Origin: Clostridia bacterium
Lineage (GTDB): Bacteria > Bacillota > Clostridia > Oscillospirales > CAG-272
Reading direction: 5' to 3'
DNA: 64,000 nucleotides
Assembly (NCBI GenBank): GCA_017481225.1
Contig: JAFUPM010000026.1
Coordinates: forward strand, 8,418 to 72,417
The notes under the pieces were generated by a model that searched no databases, was not told the DNA's origin, and saw only the letters and a program-made list of their open reading frames with translations. Both the position numbers and the translations under genes were made by a program. Shown one piece after another: positions 2,973 to 15,099 of this stretch (within the stretch, counting starts at the first letter, position 1; every line of letters starts with the position of its first letter).

Positions 2973-4448
2973 ATGGCTAAACAAGTTCAACTTGATGCAA
3001 ATGGCAAGCGTAAGTTTTCCATTCGCGACAGCGTGGCTTACGCCGCAGGCGACCTTGGTTGTAATATGAGCTTTGCGCTCAAAGGAACTATGGCGCTTTT
3101 CTGGACTCAGGTAATGGGCCTCAGTCTTTGGTATTCTCTTCTTCTCGTAATAGTTCAGGTATGGGATGCAATTAACGACCCGCTTATCGGTACTATTATC
3201 GACTCCGACAGACGTCATTATAAGAGAAATAAGTTTCTCTCTTACATATGGTTCGGCTCTATCGGACTTATCGTTGGAGGCGCGCTTTGCTTCCTTCCGT
3301 TCCCCGGCGCTCCCTTGTGGGCAAAGATTGTTATCTTTATCGCCGGCTACGTAGTTTGGGATGCGTTCTATACCATTGCTAACGTTCCTTACGGCTCTCT
3401 TCTTTCTCTTATCTCGAAGGAGCCTGCAGACAGAGCATCTCTTTCTGCTTGGCGTTCCATCGGCTCTATGGTAGGAAATATGCTTCCTATGGTTATTCTT
3501 CCCTTTATCATTTACGAGGAAGATGGCGTAACATTGAACGGTAATATGGTATTCGTTGCCGCTCTCATAATGGGCGTTCTCGGATTTATCTGCTTCCAGT
3601 TTATGATTCGCAACACCGAGATTCGCGTTGAAGAAGAAATTAAGGTCGGCGAAGAACAGCCTAAGTTCAACGTTTTTGAGGCTCTTAAGAACTTCTGCCT
3701 TAACCGTCCCGCAGTAGGCGCAACTCTCGCCGCTATGGGTATGTTTATAGGTATGCAGGGCGCAGCTACCGCGGTATCCGTTGTGTTCCAGACGTATTTC
3801 CAGAATGCACAGATTTCGGGTATTGTTCAGATGTTCTCTATGATTCCCATTTTAGTTTTCACTCCTCTTGCCCGTAAGATGGTTACTAAGTACGGTAAAA
3901 AGGAGCTCTCCGTTATAGGCGCTATTTGCTCTATATGCGGCGGTCTTGCTCTCTTTATTATTACTCCGGATAATACCGCTCTTGACCTCGTATTTTACGT
4001 TATAGCACAGCTTATATACAGCCTTGGCCTTGGCATCTACTCCACTGTTTCCTGGGCAATGATGGGTGACGCTATCGACTACAACGAGTGGAAGACCGGT
4101 AAGCGCGAGGAGGGCGTGGTTTACTCGCTTCACTCCTTCTTCAGAAAGCTCGCACAGGGTATCGGTCCTGCGTTTGCGCTTGTAATAATGAGCTGGCTCG
4201 GTTACGTTAATAACGACATCAACGAGGCAGGAGAGGCTTATATAAACGTTGAAAAGTTCATTGGCACTCAGGTTCCGATTAACCTTCGCGTTCTCGTTGC
4301 CGCGCTCTTCCTTGTAGCTGCTGTTATGCAGTTCGTAGGTCTTGCTCTTGTTTATAACCTTGACAAAAAGACCCTCGAGAAGATGAACGCTGAGCTTGCT
4401 GAGCGTCACGTGGCGGCAGAGGCAGTCGAGGTAGCTGAAAACGCATAA
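2973..4448 (+). CDS. MFS transporter, glycoside-pentoside-hexuronide (GPH):cation symporter family
   Basis: This 491-aa protein has about 12 predicted hydrophobic helices. Its N-terminus (AYAAGDLGCNMSF..WDAINDPLIGTIID) matches the MelB/UidB/YicJ-type signature, and it sits next to a GH2 gene. Confidence 0.8.
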   Translation: MAKQVQLDANGKRKFSIRDSVAYAAGDLGCNMSFALKGTMALFWTQVMGLSLWYSLLLVIVQVWDAINDPLIGTIIDSDRRHYKRNKFLSYIWFGSIGLIVGGALCFLPFPGAPLWAKIVIFIAGYVVWDAFYTIANVPYGSLLSLISKEPADRASLSAWRSIGSMVGNMLPMVILPFIIYEEDGVTLNGNMVFVAALIMGVLGFICFQFMIRNTEIRVEEEIKVGEEQPKFNVFEALKNFCLNRPAVGATLAAMGMFIGMQGAATAVSVVFQTYFQNAQISGIVQMFSMIPILVFTPLARKMVTKYGKKELSVIGAICSICGGLALFIITPDNTALDLVFYVIAQLIYSLGLGIYSTVSWAMMGDAIDYNEWKTGKREEGVVYSLHSFFRKLAQGIGPAFALVIMSWLGYVNNDINEAGEAYINVEKFIGTQVPINLRVLVAALFLVAAVMQFVGLALVYNLDKKTLEKMNAELAERHVAAEAVEVAENA

Positions 4449-10895: not shown

Positions 10896-13031
10896 ATGAA
10901 AAGAAAAAATGCTTTGCCGGAGCTGCTTGCGCCGGCGGGGAGCTTTGAGTGCCTGGAGGCGGCGATAGCCGCAGGGGCAGATGCCGTTTATATTGGCGGC
11001 AAGAGGTTTGGCGCAAGGGCGTATGCCGAAAATTTTGACACGGGTGCCATCTCGCGCGCTGTGACGCTGTGCCATCTTCACGGAGTGAAGCTGTACGTGA
11101 CGGTCAACACTCTCGTTTATGACAGGGAGATGGAGGACGTTGTGGAGTACGCCCGTGAGCTGTATTTGTTAGGCGTTGACGCTCTTATCGTGGCGGACCT
11201 TGGCGCGGTCAGGGAGATTCGTCGGGCTGTGCCCGACCTTGAGCTGCACGCATCGACTCAGATGTCCGTGCATAACTCCCTCGGGGCTGAGGAGGCGTCA
11301 AGGCTCGGTTGCTCCAGGGTGGTGCTTGCCCGTGAGCTTTCCTACGAAAATATATGTGAAATAACCGAAAAGGTCACACCCGAGATTGAGGTATTCCTCC
11401 ACGGTGCGCTGTGCGTTTGCCACTCGGGGCAGTGCCTCTTTTCCTCTATGGTTGGCGGCAGAAGCGGCAACCGCGGCGAGTGCGCTCAGCCCTGCAGACT
11501 GCCGTTTTCCTCTACACGGGGTAGGGGATATCCCTTATCCTTGAAGGATTTATGCCTTGCGGAGCATATCCCCGAGCTTATTCTCTCGGGCGTCTCGTCC
11601 TTGAAAATCGAGGGGCGAATGAAGTCCGCAGGCTACGTGTATACGGTCACCTCGGTGTATAGGCGGCTGCTTGACGAAAACCGCCGTCCCAATGAGCGTG
11701 AGCGCGAGCTTTTGCGCCGCGCATTTTCCCGAAGCGGCTTTACCGACGGATATTACAGAGCGAAGCTTTCGGCTATGACGGGTATTCGCTCCGAGGAGGA
11801 TAAAAGAGAGGGCTTGGAGATAAACTCGGCAGACCTTGCCGTGCCGCGGCACAGAGTTTTCGCAAGGGTGGAAATCCTCCGCGGTAAGGCTGCGAGTATG
11901 ACGCTTTATGACGGCACGCGAAGTGTCACAGCTTTCGGTGACGTGCCTGCTGAGGCGGAAAGCTCTCCTCTCACCGACTTTGGTGTCAAGGAGAGGCTCT
12001 CTAAAATGGGCAACACCTTCCTCGCGCTTCGCGCCGAGGATATTGAGCTTAGTCTTGACGGGGGCTTGAACCTGCCGCCTTCGTCAATTAACGCCCTTCG
12101 CAGGCTTGCGGCAGAGAGGTTCGAGGACTTCGGGCGGCGAGTAGCATTTCCCGAGTATTCCTATGAGGTGACGAGAGCTTCGAAGGAAAGGCTTGAGAAC
12201 TTCGGGCGGTGTGCAGAATTGCCCGAATATACCTACGGGACGAGGGGAGCTTCGGCGAACGGAAACAAGCTTGTGAGCGCGGAGTTCCTCTCGGAGGAAA
12301 CCTTCCTTGGGGCTGTGAGGAGCTGCGGCTCCGAGCTTGATAAGATAGACTTTAAATTCGTGCCGCTGTTTTCTTCGGACGACACTGTCACCGCGGCAGG
12401 AGGTGTCAGCCTGCCTCCCGTTATAATGGAGGACGAGCTTGCCGAGGTGAGGGGGAGGCTTTGCGAGGTTGCAAGGCTTGGTATTAAAAACGCTATGATA
12501 AGCAACTTAGGTCATATATCTCTTGTCAAGGAGGCGGGGCTTGCTTCCTTCGGCGGCTTCCGACTAAACGTTACAAACCGCGCGTCCGATGCTTTCTGGT
12601 CGGGACTTGGTGTCACGGGTACGGTTCTGTCACCCGAGCTGACCTTGCCTATGGCGAGGGATATCGGCGGCGGCGTTATTACCTACGGAAGAATTCCCTT
12701 GATGCTTACGGAGAGGTGCTTTATCAAGGAGAACTTCGGCTGTAACGAGTGCGGCAAGGCGAGTCTTATTGACAGGCGCGGAGAGAGGTTCCCGCTTCTG
12801 AGGGAATATAAGCACAGAAACCTTATTCTTAACTCCGCGGTAACCTATATGGGAGACAAGGGCGAGGAGCTTTCGAGGTGCGGTATAAGGCACACCCATC
12901 TTATATTCACAACAGAGCGCGGCGAGGATATTCTCGATGCCCTTCGGGCAAGCAGAGAGCAAAGACCTCTTTCTCGGGTTGACTCCGTGAGGCGTGTCGG
13001 AAGGAGAAAGGTTGGTAAGAAAAAGCGGTAG
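10896..13031 (+). CDS. U32 family peptidase (collagenase-like / RlhA-TrhP family)
   Basis: This 711-aa protein has the N-terminus LPELLAPAGSFECLEAAIAAGADAVYIGG..FGARAYA and the Cys-rich E..ALCVCHSGQCLFSS..GRSGNRGECAQPCR signature of U32. Confidence 0.85.
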   Translation: MKRKNALPELLAPAGSFECLEAAIAAGADAVYIGGKRFGARAYAENFDTGAISRAVTLCHLHGVKLYVTVNTLVYDREMEDVVEYARELYLLGVDALIVADLGAVREIRRAVPDLELHASTQMSVHNSLGAEEASRLGCSRVVLARELSYENICEITEKVTPEIEVFLHGALCVCHSGQCLFSSMVGGRSGNRGECAQPCRLPFSSTRGRGYPLSLKDLCLAEHIPELILSGVSSLKIEGRMKSAGYVYTVTSVYRRLLDENRRPNERERELLRRAFSRSGFTDGYYRAKLSAMTGIRSEEDKREGLEINSADLAVPRHRVFARVEILRGKAASMTLYDGTRSVTAFGDVPAEAESSPLTDFGVKERLSKMGNTFLALRAEDIELSLDGGLNLPPSSINALRRLAAERFEDFGRRVAFPEYSYEVTRASKERLENFGRCAELPEYTYGTRGASANGNKLVSAEFLSEETFLGAVRSCGSELDKIDFKFVPLFSSDDTVTAAGGVSLPPVIMEDELAEVRGRLCEVARLGIKNAMISNLGHISLVKEAGLASFGGFRLNVTNRASDAFWSGLGVTGTVLSPELTLPMARDIGGGVITYGRIPLMLTERCFIKENFGCNECGKASLIDRRGERFPLLREYKHRNLILNSAVTYMGDKGEELSRCGIRHTHLIFTTERGEDILDALRASREQRPLSRVDSVRRVGRRKVGKKKR

Positions 13032-13036
13032 CTTTT

Positions 13037-13246
13037 AGCGCAGTGCCCTTAAGGACACTGCGCAACGAAATAAATCCCTTATGGGATTTGTGAAATGCAC
13101 TTCGTGCGTGAAATTCACTTTCAGCGAGTGAAATGCCTGCGGGCGTGAGGGGATTTATTTCATTTCACATCGAGCGGAGCGAGATATTTCACAATGTTCG
13201 ACAGAACATTATTTCACATTTTGCAAAGCAAAATATTTCACTATCT
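13037..13246. repeat. Family-B 210-nt structured repeat, copy 1
   Basis: The copy is built from GTGAAAT (x3) and ATTTCAC (x4) heptamers interleaved with short perfect hairpins. See the findings for detail. Confidence 0.85.
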
Positions 13247-13378
13247 GCATTTGTGACCACAAATGCAGTGCTTGCAAAGAAAAGAGGACGAGGAGTTTTT
13301 GTAACTCTTCGTCCTCTTCCTGTCGGTAGGTAATGTATTCTATTGTATCTCAAAAGTGTCCTTAAGAGTACAGCTCCT

Positions 13379-13588
13379 AGCGCAGTTCCCTTAAGGACAC
13401 TGCGCAACGAAATAAATCCCTTATGGGATTTGTGAAATGCACTTCGTGCGTGAAATTCGCTTTCAGCGAGTGAAATGCCTGCGGGCGTGAGGGGATTTAT
13501 TTCATTTCACATCGAGCGGAGCGAGATATTTCACAATGATCGACAGAACATTATTTCACATTTTGCAAAGCAAAATATTTCACTATCT
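13379..13588. repeat. Family-B 210-nt structured repeat, copy 2
   Basis: This is a direct repeat of 13037-13246 at an offset of 342 nt. I see three substitutions. Confidence 0.85.
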
Positions 13589-13629: not shown

Positions 13630-13675
13630 AAAACGGCAGATTTGTAAGCTTTAATTTACAAATCTGCCGTTTTTG
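13630..13675. terminator. Strong bidirectional intrinsic terminator
   Basis: A 15-bp perfect stem joins acggcagatttgtaa (13633-13647) and ttacaaatctgccgt (13656-13670). It is followed by a T-run and preceded by an A-run. Confidence 0.75.
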
Positions 13676-13800: not shown

Positions 13801-15099
13801 TTACTTCACTGCGACAAGGGCGCTTTCGGGTACGGTAACCTCGACGGTGAGACTTATATCTCCTCTTGTGATAGCGAGGGAAACTGTGCTGCCGACTCTT
13901 GCCTCGTACATTGCGTCTATTACGTGGTAGGTTCTCGTGACCTTCGTGGTTTTGCCGTCAACGGTGATGCTGCTTATGACGTCTCCTACACCGACCTTGC
14001 CTTCAAGGATTGAGCCTGAGGAGATGCCCGAGACCTCAACTCGCTCAACCTTGGTTATTACACCCGTTTCGGGGTCAACTTCCAGCCCCATAACGCCTGC
14101 CTTGAGGTTTATGCCGAGGAGGCAACGGTAGAGGGTTATATCGGTTCCGTTGCAGTAGTGGATAATGGAGTCGGCAACCACTCTTACTGCGTTTATGGGC
14201 AAGGCGTAGCCGAAGTTGTCGATATCCTCCTCGTAGGACTCGTTAATTCTCTTGGCGTTGACTATTCCCACAAGGTTGCCCTTGCTGTCGAAAAGACCGC
14301 CGCCCGAGTTGCCCTGGTTTATGGCTGCGGATATTCTCGTTACCCGAAGGTCGATAGCGCTCGCGCCGTCGGCTCCAATCATACTGAGAGACTCGCTGTC
14401 AACGCTGACGATACCCGTGGTTGCGGATATTCCGAGTCCGTCGGGGTTGCCTATGACTATTACCTCGTCCAGGGCGCGAAGGCTGTCGGAGTCGCCCAGT
14501 GTGGCGGCAACGGCATAGCTGTTCTTCAGCACCTCGGAGTCCTCAACGCGGAGAACCGCCAAATCCTGGGTCAGTGCGCCGCCGACAAAGGTGGCGTCAA
14601 TTTTGTATTTTTCGTTTTCCTGGCCGTAGAGGTAGAGGTCGATGTCCCCGCTTATTTTGTTGGGGGTTGCCGTATTGTTGTAGACAACGTGGTAGTTCGT
14701 TACGATAAAGGCGTCTCCCGCCTCTCTGTCAAGGCTGTAAATGACACCCGAGCCCTCGGATTTAAAGGGGGTGGTTGAGTAGTTGGTTTTTTTCTCAAAG
14801 TTTGAGACAATTCTCACAACAGAGAGCAGCGCCCTCGTGGGCTGAGTAATGGCGGAGGAGTCGACGTCCTCGTCATCCTTCGGGAGAAATTCGGGAACGT
14901 TACCGCTACCGTTTGTGTCGTCGGTACCCTCGGAGGAGCCGCCTGCGCTGTCCTTGTCGCCATCATCTTCGACCTCTTCTCCTGCATCCGTGTCAAAGTC
15001 TTTGCCGAAAAGGTAAAGGCAGGAGGTCAGCTGACTTACCGTCAATATTAAAGCGAGTATAAGAGGGAGTAATCTCCCGAGTGTTGATTTTCTCATCAT
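13801..15099 (-). CDS. HtrA/DegP-family trypsin-like serine protease with a PDZ domain (membrane or lipid anchored)
   Basis: This 432-aa protein has an N-terminal signal/anchor with LTSC. A His region (VTNYHVV), the Ser motif GNSGGGLF and a C-terminal PDZ-like segment are present. Confidence 0.85.
   Translation of the reverse strand: MMRKSTLGRLLPLILALILTVSQLTSCLYLFGKDFDTDAGEEVEDDGDKDSAGGSSEGTDDTNGSGNVPEFLPKDDEDVDSSAITQPTRALLSVVRIVSNFEKKTNYSTTPFKSEGSGVIYSLDREAGDAFIVTNYHVVYNNTATPNKISGDIDLYLYGQENEKYKIDATFVGGALTQDLAVLRVEDSEVLKNSYAVAATLGDSDSLRALDEVIVIGNPDGLGISATTGIVSVDSESLSMIGADGASAIDLRVTRISAAINQGNSGGGLFDSKGNLVGIVNAKRINESYEEDIDNFGYALPINAVRVVADSIIHYCNGTDITLYRCLLGINLKAGVMGLEVDPETGVITKVERVEVSGISSGSILEGKVGVGDVISSITVDGKTTKVTRTYHVIDAMYEARVGSTVSLAITRGDISLTVEVTVPESALVAVK

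Follow-up and report, generated by a model that had tools for sequence, protein, structure and literature searches.

The window, meaning the whole 64-kb stretch of DNA analysed here, carries two copies of a structured intergenic element, E1 (13030-13246, + strand) and E2 (13372-13588, + strand), each of which belongs to the Gut-1 family and has both arms at full length. The comparison of these copies with their relatives is best explained by a model in which the element is transcribed from the + strand and its repeated heptamers are a candidate binding platform for a PF05635 protein, a reading to which we give a probability of roughly 40%.

The family assignment comes from the left arm of each copy. 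Specifically, cmscan matches the full Rfam Gut-1 model (RF01706, positions 1-77) on the + strand within this 'G arm', at 13063-13139 in E1 (70.3 bits) and at 13405-13481 in E2 (75.7 bits), where the curated gathering score that serves as the membership cut-off is 50 bits. Both copies show the three consecutive hairpins flanked by GUGAAAU, with covarying stems, that mark the family. The right 'C arm' resembles the same model on the - strand at sub-threshold scores (E1 13243-13157, 43.4 bits; E2 13605-13523, 35.7 bits). Weinberg et al. 2010 (PMC2864571) gave the Gut-1 RNA motif one sentence, which places it 'only in human gut sequences', and listed it among non-coding RNAs of unknown function. 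The C arm, the long-range helix P0, the leading hairpin H0 as part of the unit and the heptamer families are not described there, nor are the junction with tRNA-CCA ends, the multicopy dispersal, the PF05635 link or the occurrence in ruminant-gut Clostridia and in Akkermansia; the flanks of the original alignment already show tRNA ends, an upstream predicted terminator and a convergent array. A full-text literature search on Gut-1 RNA and PF05635 returned nothing beyond this paper and one on a DGR.

Homologues beyond the window, which the sequence-only reading had raised as a prospect, do exist. Besides the above-threshold Rfam match, there are about 40 relatives of full length, from MAGs of uncultured gut Clostridia, that share a single layout: H0, five GAAAT-type heptamers with four hairpins, P0, and five ATTTCAC-type heptamers with three hairpins. 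All true relatives are of gut origin (MAGs or metagenomes from human, ruminant, horse and chicken), and variants of the element are present in Akkermansia.

The sequence-only reading had reported two near-identical direct copies with an offset of 342 nt and three substitutions. The repeat search of the window agrees and widens the extent to 217 nt at 98% identity; the substitutions, read from the sequence within the narrower range, fall at 13045/13387, 13117/13459 and 13198/13540. An nhmmer profile of the full-length element matches E1 at 13038-13244 (197 bits) and E2 at 13379-13586 (196 bits). E1 and E2 are two distinct copies; they do not represent a 342-nt unit duplicated in tandem. Homology of E1 to its relatives continues rightward to about 13335, and this right extension (13247-13335), which a MAFFT flank alignment finds in common with the relatives L109 and L108 and missing from E2, contains hairpin H8 (13247-13266), AGTGCTTGCAAAG, a hairpin at 13282-13318 whose stem covaries and which has a T-run on the - strand only, and CCTGTCGGTAGGTA. 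The right flank of L109 matches E1 and its left flank does not, and a degenerate partial H0 palindrome, detected by the repeat search, lies just 5' of E2 (13355-13374).

Upstream of both copies, a peptidase U32 gene (10896-13031, + strand; PF01136, 263 bits) ends with its stop codon 6 nt 5' of H0 of E1 and presumably supplies the + strand transcription that passes through E1 and E2, as the terminator scan finds no + strand terminator-like site between 13031 and an 18-bp hairpin at 13630-13673. This hairpin, the strong terminator from which the element had correctly been kept distinct, has T-runs on both sides; it was recovered by the repeat search, and the terminator scan lists it for the - strand only. 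Its + strand tail, read from the sequence, is GCCGTTTTTGG, and it is likely a terminator common to the htrA-like gene on the - strand and the U32/element transcript on the + strand.

Within each copy, the GC-rich hairpin H0 (gcgcagtgccc-ttaa-ggacactgcgc; 13038-13063, E2 13380-13405) comes first; it is part of the repeated unit and is present in 29/29 aligned relatives. The G arm follows (13065-13151, E2 +342) with five heptamer units (ACGAAAT at 13065; GTGAAAT at 13090, 13108 and 13128; GTGAGGG at 13145) and four hairpins (H1 13072-13089; H2 13097-13107; H3 13115-13127; H4 13135-13144). The C arm (13157-13241, E2 +342) consists of ATTTC and ATTTCAC words, the latter at 13162, 13186, 13211 and 13235, and three 7-bp hairpins (H5 13169-13185; H6 13193-13210; H7 13218-13234). 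A word count confirms the heptamer positions and the convergence of the arrays, with GTGAAAT on the + strand at the three G-arm positions and on the - strand at the four C-arm positions of E1, and with identical offsets in E2. Together the copies hold 14 of the 20 GTGAAAT words in the window, where shuffled windows contain 7.4 +/- 3.1 and 0/100 shuffles reach 20.

The hairpins stand as first described except for 13169-13185, which is not fully Watson-Crick: the middle of its stem is interrupted by a tandem G.A/A.G, as is seen again in relatives. The earlier statement that all three substitutions break stems of the second copy fails at 13117/13459, where copy 1 has the broken pair (tcAct/agcga) and copy 2, together with L109 and L038, has the intact tcGct-ttc-agcga. 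The sequence-only reading also overlooked the long-range helix P0, which in the window is a perfect 12-bp pairing of GAAATAAATCCC (13067-13078, E2 13409-13420) with the inverted repeat GGGATTTATTTC at the element centre (13150-13161, E2 13492-13503), and which RNAalifold recovers as a consensus helix of 29 sequences. Across relatives, P0 covaries, spans 11-12 bp and can close the G arm; in its 11-pair consensus, both sides change in 6/11 pairs, and 98.1% of cells are paired. Its 5' strand doubles as the 5' arm of the local hairpin H1, so that the two pairings compete.

Covariation is absent inside the window, as had been noted, and strong across relatives. Over 26 tested pairs in 29 sequences, 96.2% are paired against 74.8% in shuffles, and double-sided changes number 144 against 36.5, values that 0/500 shuffles reach; slid controls for the same pairs give 38-54% paired. 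The stems are 96% Watson-Crick over 100 distinct hairpins of the G arm and 90% Watson-Crick over 74 distinct hairpins of the C arm, and pair counts over the 29 sequences show that the C-arm stems covary as well. The proposal that the element is a transcribed, structured one thus holds in substance, by its match to an Rfam RNA family and its covarying stems, with transcription itself being what we infer.

The alignment also shows that the heptamers, in contrast to the covarying stems, are invariant within a family. Four GAAAT-type units are kept in 26/29 relatives and the purine-rich terminal unit in 28/29. Four heptamer families occur (GTGAAAT/ATTTCAC, GTGATAT/ATATCAC, GCTAAAT/ATTTAGC and ATGAAAT/ATTTCAT), in all of which the C-arm word is the reverse complement of the G-arm word; heptamers are uniform inside one element, and between lineages every unit switches in concert. 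A metagenome scan for GTGATAT arrays returned mostly chance tandem repeats and about 10 real elements. The pairing of left with right heptamers into a ladder, as had been suggested, is plausible: it appears in the MFE fold of both strands, and the words of the two arms change together, but it is topologically incompatible with the covarying P0. Since the heptamers are invariant within one family, their pairing is indistinguishable from their recognition by a common factor. Mutated heptamers in two relatives (L003, L290) are G.U-compatible across the arms on the + strand only, with a chance probability of about 0.3.

This concerted behaviour bears on whether the element might be a passive cluster of stable hairpins, REP/BIME-like and with no dedicated protein, that serves as a two-way transcription stop or insulator or as a block to 3' exonucleases. 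Such a cluster would fit the placement between gene ends and the very stable fold (z about -5.9 on either strand). It would also fit the fact that, reading outward on either strand, AUUUCAC with its short U-stretch follows each hairpin, and that the terminator scan flags terminator-like sites on the - strand at 13089-13072 and 13431-13414. Yet a passive cluster would neither keep a 7-nt linker invariant nor switch ten units together, would not preserve five units per arm and leaves the tight link to PF05635 genes unexplained, and we regard it as improbable.

The heptamers had alternatively been read as convergent duplex-DNA iterons for a replication-origin, partition (parS-like) or packaging protein. 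An invariant word in two convergent arrays is what such sites would look like, the C arm has a regular 24-25-nt period (77/103 intervals), and in several loci the last word abuts a promoter -35 box; TTTCAC/GTGAAA, furthermore, equals the half-site of parS, TGTTTCAC joined to GTGAAACA. The spacing of the G arm, however, ranges from 16 to 26 nt in steps of two and tracks stem length, not helical phase; the spacers are covarying palindromes, which duplex binding would not require; and a covarying helix bridges sites that are separated by 85-95 nt. Neither rep nor par nor terminase genes were found nearby, and the copies are chromosomal, multicopy and located at 3' ends of tRNA genes and ORFs, with none in PLSDB plasmids and few in phage and viral collections. 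The variants GCTAAAT and GTGATAT destroy the likeness to both parS and the DnaA box. As such, the iteron reading is very improbable. A DnaA box was rejected in its own right: TATTTCACA differs from TTATNCACA by two mismatches, at stringent positions, and neither the left arm nor any of the other heptamer families contains it.

The genomic distribution ties the element to the ends of genes. It is multicopy and dispersed, with an orientation fixed relative to the upstream gene, and often occupies the gap from a terminator to the following promoter or the space separating convergent genes. A co-oriented tRNA gene, of 11 tRNA species in all, lies 28-51 nt upstream of 19/59 copies, for which the chance expectation is about 0.4%; these copies sit just behind the tRNA CCA end, and others directly after stop codons, as E1 does after the U32 peptidase gene. 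At least four near-identical copies occur behind different genes in one MAG, and contig breaks fall within the element. Identical H0 sequence families recur behind different tRNAs in different MAGs, and an identical 1019-nt module, comprising H0, the arrays, a four-helix-bundle gene and a MazG-like gene, stands behind both tRNA-Pro and tRNA-Arg, its identity beginning exactly between CCA and GAAAAG and stopping directly after ...TTTCGCA. Among 120 pattern matches in viral contigs, 5 are real elements, at least 3 of them at junctions with tRNAs or tRNA remnants.

The near-identical copies, the contig breaks, the module with its exact boundaries and the shared H0 families favour a DNA-level selfish or mobile repeat, MITE- or 23S rRNA IVS-like, whose arms would be the ends of a small self-copying element. 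Its targets would be the 3' ends of tRNA genes and ORFs, its hairpins would form in single-stranded DNA, and its heptamers would be the binding or cleavage words of a mobilising protein on DNA; versions with the four-helix-bundle gene, with or without the MazG-like gene, would carry cargo, and the window copies would be cargo-less derivatives. The separateness of E1 and E2, the H0 remnant at 13355-13374 and the sharing of only the right flank with L109 point the same way. Both strands of the element fold equally well (-73.7 and -73.1 kcal/mol), and the stems are nearly free of G.U, which makes up 1-2% of stem pairs, an unusually low proportion for RNA (the ratio of G.U to A.C is 6:8 for the G arm and 9:3 for the C arm). 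This scarcity fits selection on both strands or on DNA and counts against the preferred + strand reading. The loop words CTTCG and CTGCG read on the opposite strand as d(C-GAA-G) and d(C-GCA-G), two mini-hairpins of very high stability in DNA. A gene for a PF01797 Y1 transposase adjoins the arrays in one Akkermansiaceae lineage only, and inverted heptamer arrays flank distant four-helix-bundle genes in Nostoc, Treponema and Monoglobus, where they could form a stem around the ORF.

Several observations nevertheless weigh against mobility as the explanation. The 1019-nt module contains no recombinase or transposase, and the remnants at tRNA ends are better accounted for by attR scars that islands left on integrating in the tRNA gene. 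Compensatory stem changes between genomes indicate long-term selection for pairing and not only recent spread, and an orientation fixed relative to the upstream gene is equally expected of a co-transcribed element. Measured against what defines MITEs, multicopy occurrence and precise boundaries are evident, and in one genome the two ends of the element carry the same palindrome; the comparison revealed no clear target-site duplication and identified no transposase. We consider the selfish-repeat reading doubtful, and it partly overlaps the preferred one rather than excluding it.

What sets the preferred reading apart is its protein partner. A PF05635 gene is the sole recurrent neighbour of the element, adjacent and co-oriented at 7/52 element loci; that it adjoins only these 7 counts against the preferred reading. 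Seen from the protein side, arrays flank every four-helix-bundle gene examined: all 31 loci fetched through PF05635-type proteins carry them, with the full element between positions -252 and -51 relative to the start codon in 20/20 P0012 and P0025 loci, and with such arrays at 11/11 loci of four further PF05635 subfamilies. Locus L005 has such arrays as well. At two loci, L389 and L076, the gap between the last heptamer and the start codon or Shine-Dalgarno sequence of the downstream four-helix-bundle gene is 4-17 nt, too short to accommodate a promoter, which places the arrays within a + strand leader. In most copies linked to such a gene, on the other hand, a sigma-70-like promoter separates the gene from the C arm, which puts the arrays upstream of the mRNA and not inside it and argues against the preferred reading. 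PDB 2RLD, a structure with five chains, matches the four-helix-bundle protein at E=1.4e-21, and PF05635 has been linked to Avd, with an assembly of five four-helix bundles cited (PMC10053308). PF05635/TIGR02436 proteins are abundant, numbering at least about 8000; the 64-kb window contains no PF05635 gene.

The available data are compatible with a model in which the element is part of a single-stranded + strand transcript, as the 3' trailer of the preceding gene. In the window, the U32 peptidase mRNA would continue across both copies up to the 13630-13673 terminator; elsewhere, the element would come after a tRNA operon or precede a four-helix-bundle gene as its 5' leader. The hairpins would act as spacers displaying the invariant heptamers, and the heptamers as recognition words for a trans-acting protein, for which the best candidate is the Avd-like, homopentameric four-helix-bundle PF05635/TIGR02436 protein, with five words per arm and five subunits, although this five-to-five stoichiometry is at present numerology. 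The C arm may either pair with the G arm, masking its words, or present its own, and P0 and H1 would be mutually exclusive alternatives. The window copies would then be 'orphan' copies, with no protein gene of their own within 64 kb and served in trans. We infer the transcribed strand, the binding of the protein and any physiological role; the family membership, the structure, the distribution and the linkage to tRNA and protein genes on which this model builds are directly observed.

The choice of strand has to be weighed against a further alternative, that of a small RNA gene on the - strand that starts to the right of the last heptamer and ends at H0 as a Rho-independent terminator, used convergently with the tRNA in tRNA-linked copies; its order would be four GUGAAAU-hairpin units, the centre, AUUUCAC units and H0. 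In tRNA-linked relatives, the H0 position indeed has the A-run/hairpin/T-run shape of a terminator, flanked by T-runs on either side, and is separated from the first heptamer by 0-2 nt. On the - strand, this arrangement resembles a normal bacterial sRNA 3' end; on the + strand, it resembles an efficient intrinsic terminator, at which transcription should stop before the arrays, a difficulty for the preferred reading. The window subfamily also suggests a - strand gene, in that its - strand terminator (13318 to 13282, with a covarying stem) is succeeded by a conserved -35-like TTGCAA/TTGACA/TTGAAA and, after 17-18 nt, by ACAAAT/CATAAA just upstream of the arrays. Single-arm relatives, read on the - strand, run from a 5' hairpin through a CCUCC-like stretch and hairpin-AUUUCAC units to a terminator, and the G-arm loops read GAA, GCA and GCAA on this strand, although loop type, like the G.U and A.C counts and the folding energies, does not tell the strands apart.

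Against this, the orientation of the element always matches that of the upstream tRNA or other gene and that of the downstream four-helix-bundle gene (7/7, 20/20 and 11/11), the arrays at L389 and L076 must be in a + strand leader, and H0 has no T-run in the window copies and their relatives. The putative -10 boxes are weak, with 3-4/6 matches, and a sigma-70 scan of the window region finds no promoter near the element. The right flanks of relatives vary, some with weak - strand promoter-like boxes and many with strong + strand promoters or terminators instead. Taken together, a - strand small RNA appears unlikely.

Comparison with known systems further delimits the element. It is not a CRISPR array, as had been stated: the repeated word is 7 nt long where CRISPR direct repeats measure about 23-50 nt, the 'spacers' are palindromes of 8-26 nt and not unique, non-palindromic stretches of similar length, the arrays converge, and matches to CRISPR direct repeats are at noise level. 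Nor is it coding, as had also been stated, with only short, mechanically listed ORFs crossing its hairpins, and ARAGORN finds no tRNA or tmRNA in the window. A Type III toxin-antitoxin RNA of the ToxI kind, with identical tandem repeats of about 36 nt beside a gene for a ToxN-type endoribonuclease, was rejected because the units of the element differ in sequence and length and no toxin-like neighbour recurs. REP/BIME and pneumococcal BOX elements consist of extragenic palindromic units in alternating orientation at gene 3' ends, where they are co-transcribed, and share with the present element its multicopy, modular and assembly-breaking character and its variable unit numbers. REPs, however, have a conserved palindrome with a conserved 5' tetranucleotide, and variable linkers, whereas in the Gut-1 element the palindromes differ freely within and between elements and the linkers are constant; a RAYT gene is not consistently near the element, the Y1 transposase having been seen next to arrays in one lineage only.

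The intervening sequences of 23S rRNA carry a PF05635 'S23p' ORF and inverted repeats, and like the relatives described here they tie this protein family to inverted repeats and a stable-RNA gene. In contrast to them, the element stands behind tRNA genes or ORFs and not inside 23S, and its repeats are interrupted by hairpins. The window copies are not of this type, being without an ORF and behind a peptidase gene in a window that lacks PF05635. A looser analogy may be drawn with the sponge RNAs CsrB/RsmZ, which bind CsrA, and the trp leader, which binds the TRAP 11-mer, since these set a repeated short single-stranded word on a hairpin scaffold in numbers matching an oligomeric protein, as the element would; but the words of the element lie in linkers between hairpins and not in loops, face a complementary second arm, and differ in sequence and in protein family, the protein of the element being putative. 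Avd is the DGR accessory protein, a pentameric four-helix bundle whose binding partners are nucleic acid and reverse transcriptase. PF05635 proteins are reported to be similar, with five-bundle assemblies (PMC10053308) and five chains in PDB 2RLD, but unlike in DGRs, none of the elements or modules examined has a reverse transcriptase, a template repeat or a variable repeat beside it.

These findings raise the wider, tentative possibility that heptamer arrays and PF05635 pentamers form one previously unrecognised nucleic-acid/protein system, in which five lineage-specific words per arm would correspond to five subunits and the module, with or without its protein gene, would settle precisely at the 3' ends of stable-RNA genes, at tRNA-CCA ends here and in 23S rRNA intervening sequences elsewhere. 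If the link is instead that of a selfish repeat and its cargo, it would explain a frequent cause of assembly breaks in MAGs of gut Clostridia and would show that a module without a detected recombinase can target the ends of tRNA genes with great precision. Gut-1 has been in Rfam since 2010 with no organism, partner or function, and PF05635/TIGR02436 proteins are equally unexplained outside DGR Avd. The two-armed element, the tRNA 3'-end junction, the switching of words and the array-flanked four-helix-bundle genes turn these two orphans into a testable pair and, if the proposed system is real, would assign a function at once to this Rfam motif and to a large protein family, each of them an orphan so far.

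The repeat search resolves a 217-nt unit in two direct copies, E1 (13030-13246) and E2 (13372-13588), which are 98% identical and 342 nt apart. Each copy carries three rightward GTGAAAT heptamers and four leftward ones, with a small hairpin in every inter-heptamer interval. The 64-kb window has 20 GTGAAAT words, 14 of them inside the two copies; shuffled windows hold 7.4 +/- 3.1 and never attain 20. The duplicated array of convergent GTGAAAT/ATTTCAC heptamers and mini-hairpins described by the sequence-only reading is thereby borne out. Gene calls, repeat search and terminator scan also agree with its placement: a U32 peptidase gene (10896-13031, + strand, PF01136) lies on one side and an HtrA-like protease gene (13801-15099, - strand, Trypsin_2 and PDZ) on the other, and an 18-bp hairpin at 13630-13673 is separate from the copies. 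Two details required amendment. The three substitutions between the copies are present in the range it had delimited, but they do not all damage copy 2, as the broken pair at 13117/13459 belongs to copy 1. Likewise, the hairpins are as described except for the stem at 13169-13185, which contains tandem G.A/A.G rather than full pairing. A perfect 12-bp long-range pairing of 13067-13078 with 13150-13161 had been overlooked.

Both copies match the Rfam family Gut-1 (RF01706; gathering score 50) in cmscan, at 13063-13139 with 70.3 bits and at 13405-13481 with 75.7 bits. Gut-1 was defined from 43 human-gut metagenome sequences, was found in no sequenced organism and was listed as a probable non-coding RNA (Weinberg et al. 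2010, PMC2864571); full-text literature searches found no later work on it. E1 and E2 are new members of an existing family and not a new kind of thing.

The surroundings of the two copies differ. To its right, E1 shares a further ~90 nt with the relative loci L109 and L108, including a hairpin (13282-13318) with a T-run on the - strand only, whose stem covaries in both relatives. On the - strand, a conserved -35-like TTGCAA/TTGACA/TTGAAA comes next. This hairpin may have terminated a - strand gene since lost or displaced, or it may belong to a - strand transcription unit for E1. E2 is without the extension and is directly preceded by a degenerate, partial palindrome of the leading hairpin H0 (13355-13374), which suggests repeated insertion or recombination at that spot; because of these two features, we regard E1 and E2 as separate copies, not one tandem duplication. 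From the U32 stop codon as far as the 13630-13673 hairpin, the terminator scan flagged nothing terminator-like on the + strand, and the U32 transcript therefore probably traverses both copies. The last U32 codons and stop (AAG AAA AAG CGG TAG) lie inside an A-run...T-run stretch at 13011-13036, AAAAAGCGGTAGCTTTT, and comparable A-run stretches stand upstream of H0 in L109, L038 and L012. In the MAG JAZTZP, three different genes have a stop codon that is provided by the element or overlaps with it. The element may reshape ORF 3' ends.

Two checks proposed from the sequence alone, a search for further copies and a covariation test in aligned relatives, were run. A pattern scan over one genome per species gave 120 loci, and an nhmmer profile built on 18 full copies gave 36 full-length and about 20 partial copies. 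The hosts are nearly all MAGs of gut Clostridia (Oscillospiraceae, Acutalibacteraceae, Ruminococcaceae, Christensenellaceae, 'Eubacteriales'), with variants also in Akkermansia. The sole match in a curated phage collection (76% identity, 112 nt) is at 14814-14923 of MT835590.1, a 'Bacteriophage sp.' record without annotation that derives from human faeces.

All full copies share a single polar layout: H0; (C)AACGAAAT; H1, the first hairpin of the left arm; three GTGAAAT-hairpin units; GTGAGGN; a copy of the H1 3' arm and then ATTTC; three units of ATTTCAC then a 7-bp hairpin; and a final ATTTCAC. Each arm has five heptamer-like units. Hairpin sequence varies freely within and between elements with pairing kept: 424 of 441 left-arm pairs (over 100 distinct hairpins) and 390 of 433 right-arm pairs (over 74) are Watson-Crick. 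The 26 pairs tested on 29 aligned sequences reach 96.2% pairing versus 74.8% in shuffles, with 144 double-sided changes versus 36.5, values attained in 0 of 500 shuffles; slid controls are only 38-54% paired. The RNAalifold consensus contains a long-range helix, P0, in which the last five bases of heptamer 0 and the H1 5' arm pair with the central H1 3'-arm copy and ATTTC; of its 11 consensus pairs six covary, with 98% of cells paired. P0 cannot form together with H1, nor together with heptamer-to-heptamer pairing between the arms. The conserved single-strand fold consists of local hairpins plus P0. A cluster of hairpins with a merely passive role is, on our weighing, improbable.

Four otherwise identical JAZTZP copies (L083 1-260, L084, L102, L080) differ only in the loop of the fourth hairpin (ttgcggc-CAATTT/AAATTT/GAATTC-gccgcaa; ttgcggg-CAAAAAG-ccgcaa), which reflects either a hypervariable loop or contig-end assembly noise. 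MAGs that carry the element also hold other arrays, in which free-sequence hairpins alternate with constant short linkers (CATCAT/ATGATG, ATATCATC), and a TATTCAC tandem repeat without hairpins (L009 about 3600-3760, - strand; L020 980-1130; L002 4900-4965; L041 about 2990-3050). The design of constant linker plus variable hairpin is broader than Gut-1. In an Akkermansia sp. locus (L005 2100-3400), three tandem units of about 440 nt each join four GTGAAAT-hairpins to four same-strand CGAGATT-hairpins; the second word is non-complementary, so arrays can be combined as modules without complementarity.

The heptamers are invariant within an element, and four families share one architecture: GTGAAAT/ATTTCAC, GTGATAT/ATATCAC (in Weinberg's own alignment and metagenome loci), GCTAAAT/ATTTAGC (L094) and ATGAAAT/ATTTCAT (L368). 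Within each family, reverse-complementing the left-arm word gives the right-arm word, and the flanks of P0 change accordingly. Because all ten units switch together, whereas pairing alone would let unit pairs drift independently, the pattern suggests either a reader acting in trans or homogenisation, besides or in place of pairing; in their behaviour the heptamers resemble recognition words. The earlier suggestion of iterons for replication, partition or packaging fares poorly and is highly unlikely. TTTCAC/GTGAAA (e.g. 13162-13168) is identical to the half-site of the ParB site parS, TGTTTCAC joined to GTGAAACA; the two halves never adjoin each other as they do in parS, and the likeness is lost in the variant heptamer families. 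Right-arm spacing is 24-25 nt. Left-arm spacing ranges over 16-26 nt in two-nucleotide increments, the pattern expected of 3-7-bp hairpins with triloops, and this variability, together with palindromic spacers, argues against phased binding of duplex DNA.

The element is multicopy and dispersed. One MAG holds at least four near-identical copies, which begin at the stop codons of as many different genes, and has contig breaks inside the element; several contigs carry two copies. Among 59 copies with the left end present, 19 lie 28-51 nt behind a co-oriented tRNA gene with H0 alone intervening (chance expectation about 0.4%), and eleven tRNA species are involved. The junction reads ...CCA followed by (G)AAAAAAGC. 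H0 is part of the unit, and the same H0 sequences follow different tRNAs in different genomes. Fixed orientation and a defined junction characterize the placement of the element behind tRNA genes and ORFs. Short tRNA-end remnants ahead of some copies, including viral-contig loci and a tRNA-Pro site with an inserted serine recombinase or PDDEXK gene, are most plausibly attR scars left by islands that integrated in the tRNA gene. A selfish element acting at the DNA level is a serious, if tentative, rival, and is partly compatible with the reading that we favour below.

When all ORFs within 2.5 kb of 58 copies were clustered, the sole recurrent element-adjacent neighbour was a 113-119-aa PF05635/TIGR02436 protein ('23S rRNA intervening sequence protein / four helix bundle protein'). 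Of 52 loci, 7 have its gene, invariably in the orientation of the element: in six the gene follows at a distance of 14-57 nt, in one it immediately precedes the element, and the upstream tRNAs vary; the window encodes no PF05635-type protein. Retrieval from the protein side, with the near-identical P0012 and P0025, found the whole element, at positions -252 to -51 relative to the start codon, in 20 of 20 loci. The genes for tRNA-Pro(cgg) and tRNA-Arg(acg) are each followed, immediately past the CCA, by an identical 1019-nt module (1229-2247 in L362 and L368; also L361, L363-L380). Identity starts exactly after CCA and stops at ...TTTCGCA, and the module comprises H0, arrays, promoter, the four-helix-bundle gene and an overlapping 110-aa MazG-like gene (PF03819, 27 bits); no recombinase family was detected inside it. 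Four more divergent subfamilies (about 50-70% identity to the Akkermansia query) are flanked by heptamer/hairpin arrays at 11 of 11 loci, with the words GTGAAAT and GCGAAAT, ACGAAAT/ATTTCGT and ATGAAAT/ATTTCAT; the arrays around the L005 gene are GATATAAC/GTTATATC. The association of element and PF05635 genes is a tight one.

Distant PF05635 members in cultured organisms have inverted heptamer arrays without hairpins, or related inverted repeats, on their flanks: ATTCGTA x4 upstream and TACGAAT x4 downstream in Nostoc flagelliforme pNFSY06 (L394 1130-1170, 1528-1565), long 7-nt-periodic (R)(K)GAAAG arrays in Treponema saccharophilum pTS1 (L393 850-1190, 1550-1650), and in Monoglobus (L392 1130-1190, 1560-1590) an inverted repeat that encloses a pseudogene, itself flanked by hsdS and hsdR. 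Repeats of these kinds also flank a distant PF05635 gene in L024 (970-1090, 1440-1500). Reverse-complement flanking repeats may be a general property of the family. In Akkermansiaceae (L381/L382 2065-2166, same contig as L011), a PF01797 gene for an IS200-like Y1 transposase, possibly RAYT-type, lies just past four to five two-armed elements around a four-helix-bundle gene, with a phage-type integrase gene on the opposite side of the run.

Strand indicators within the element point in no single direction. The left arm has 6 G.U against 8 A.C and the right arm 9 against 3, G.U making up only 1-2% of stem pairs, and folding energies are -73.7 versus -73.1 kcal/mol on the two strands (z about -5.9). 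The leftward arrays are Gut-1-like on the - strand at sub-threshold scores (43.4 and 35.7 bits). A small RNA from that strand is a doubtful proposition. In tRNA-linked copies H0 resembles a real terminator; in the window subfamily (window, L109, L012, L108, L021, L030, L072, L016) it is GC-rich and without a T-run. At L389 and L076 only 4-17 nt separate the last heptamer from the Shine-Dalgarno sequence or the start codon, which places the arrays there within a + strand leader. We favour, at a probability of about 0.4, a model in which the element would be transcribed from the + strand and the candidate PF05635 protein would read its heptamer words. The solved family member 2RLD (match E=1.4e-21) has five chains, and PF05635 has been reported to resemble the pentameric DGR protein Avd, forming five-bundle assemblies (PMC10053308).

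What goes beyond the published description of Gut-1 is its two-armed structure including P0, the existence of heptamer families, the junction with tRNA-CCA, the range of hosts and the association with PF05635. Together these features open the function of both an orphan motif and an orphan protein family to direct testing.
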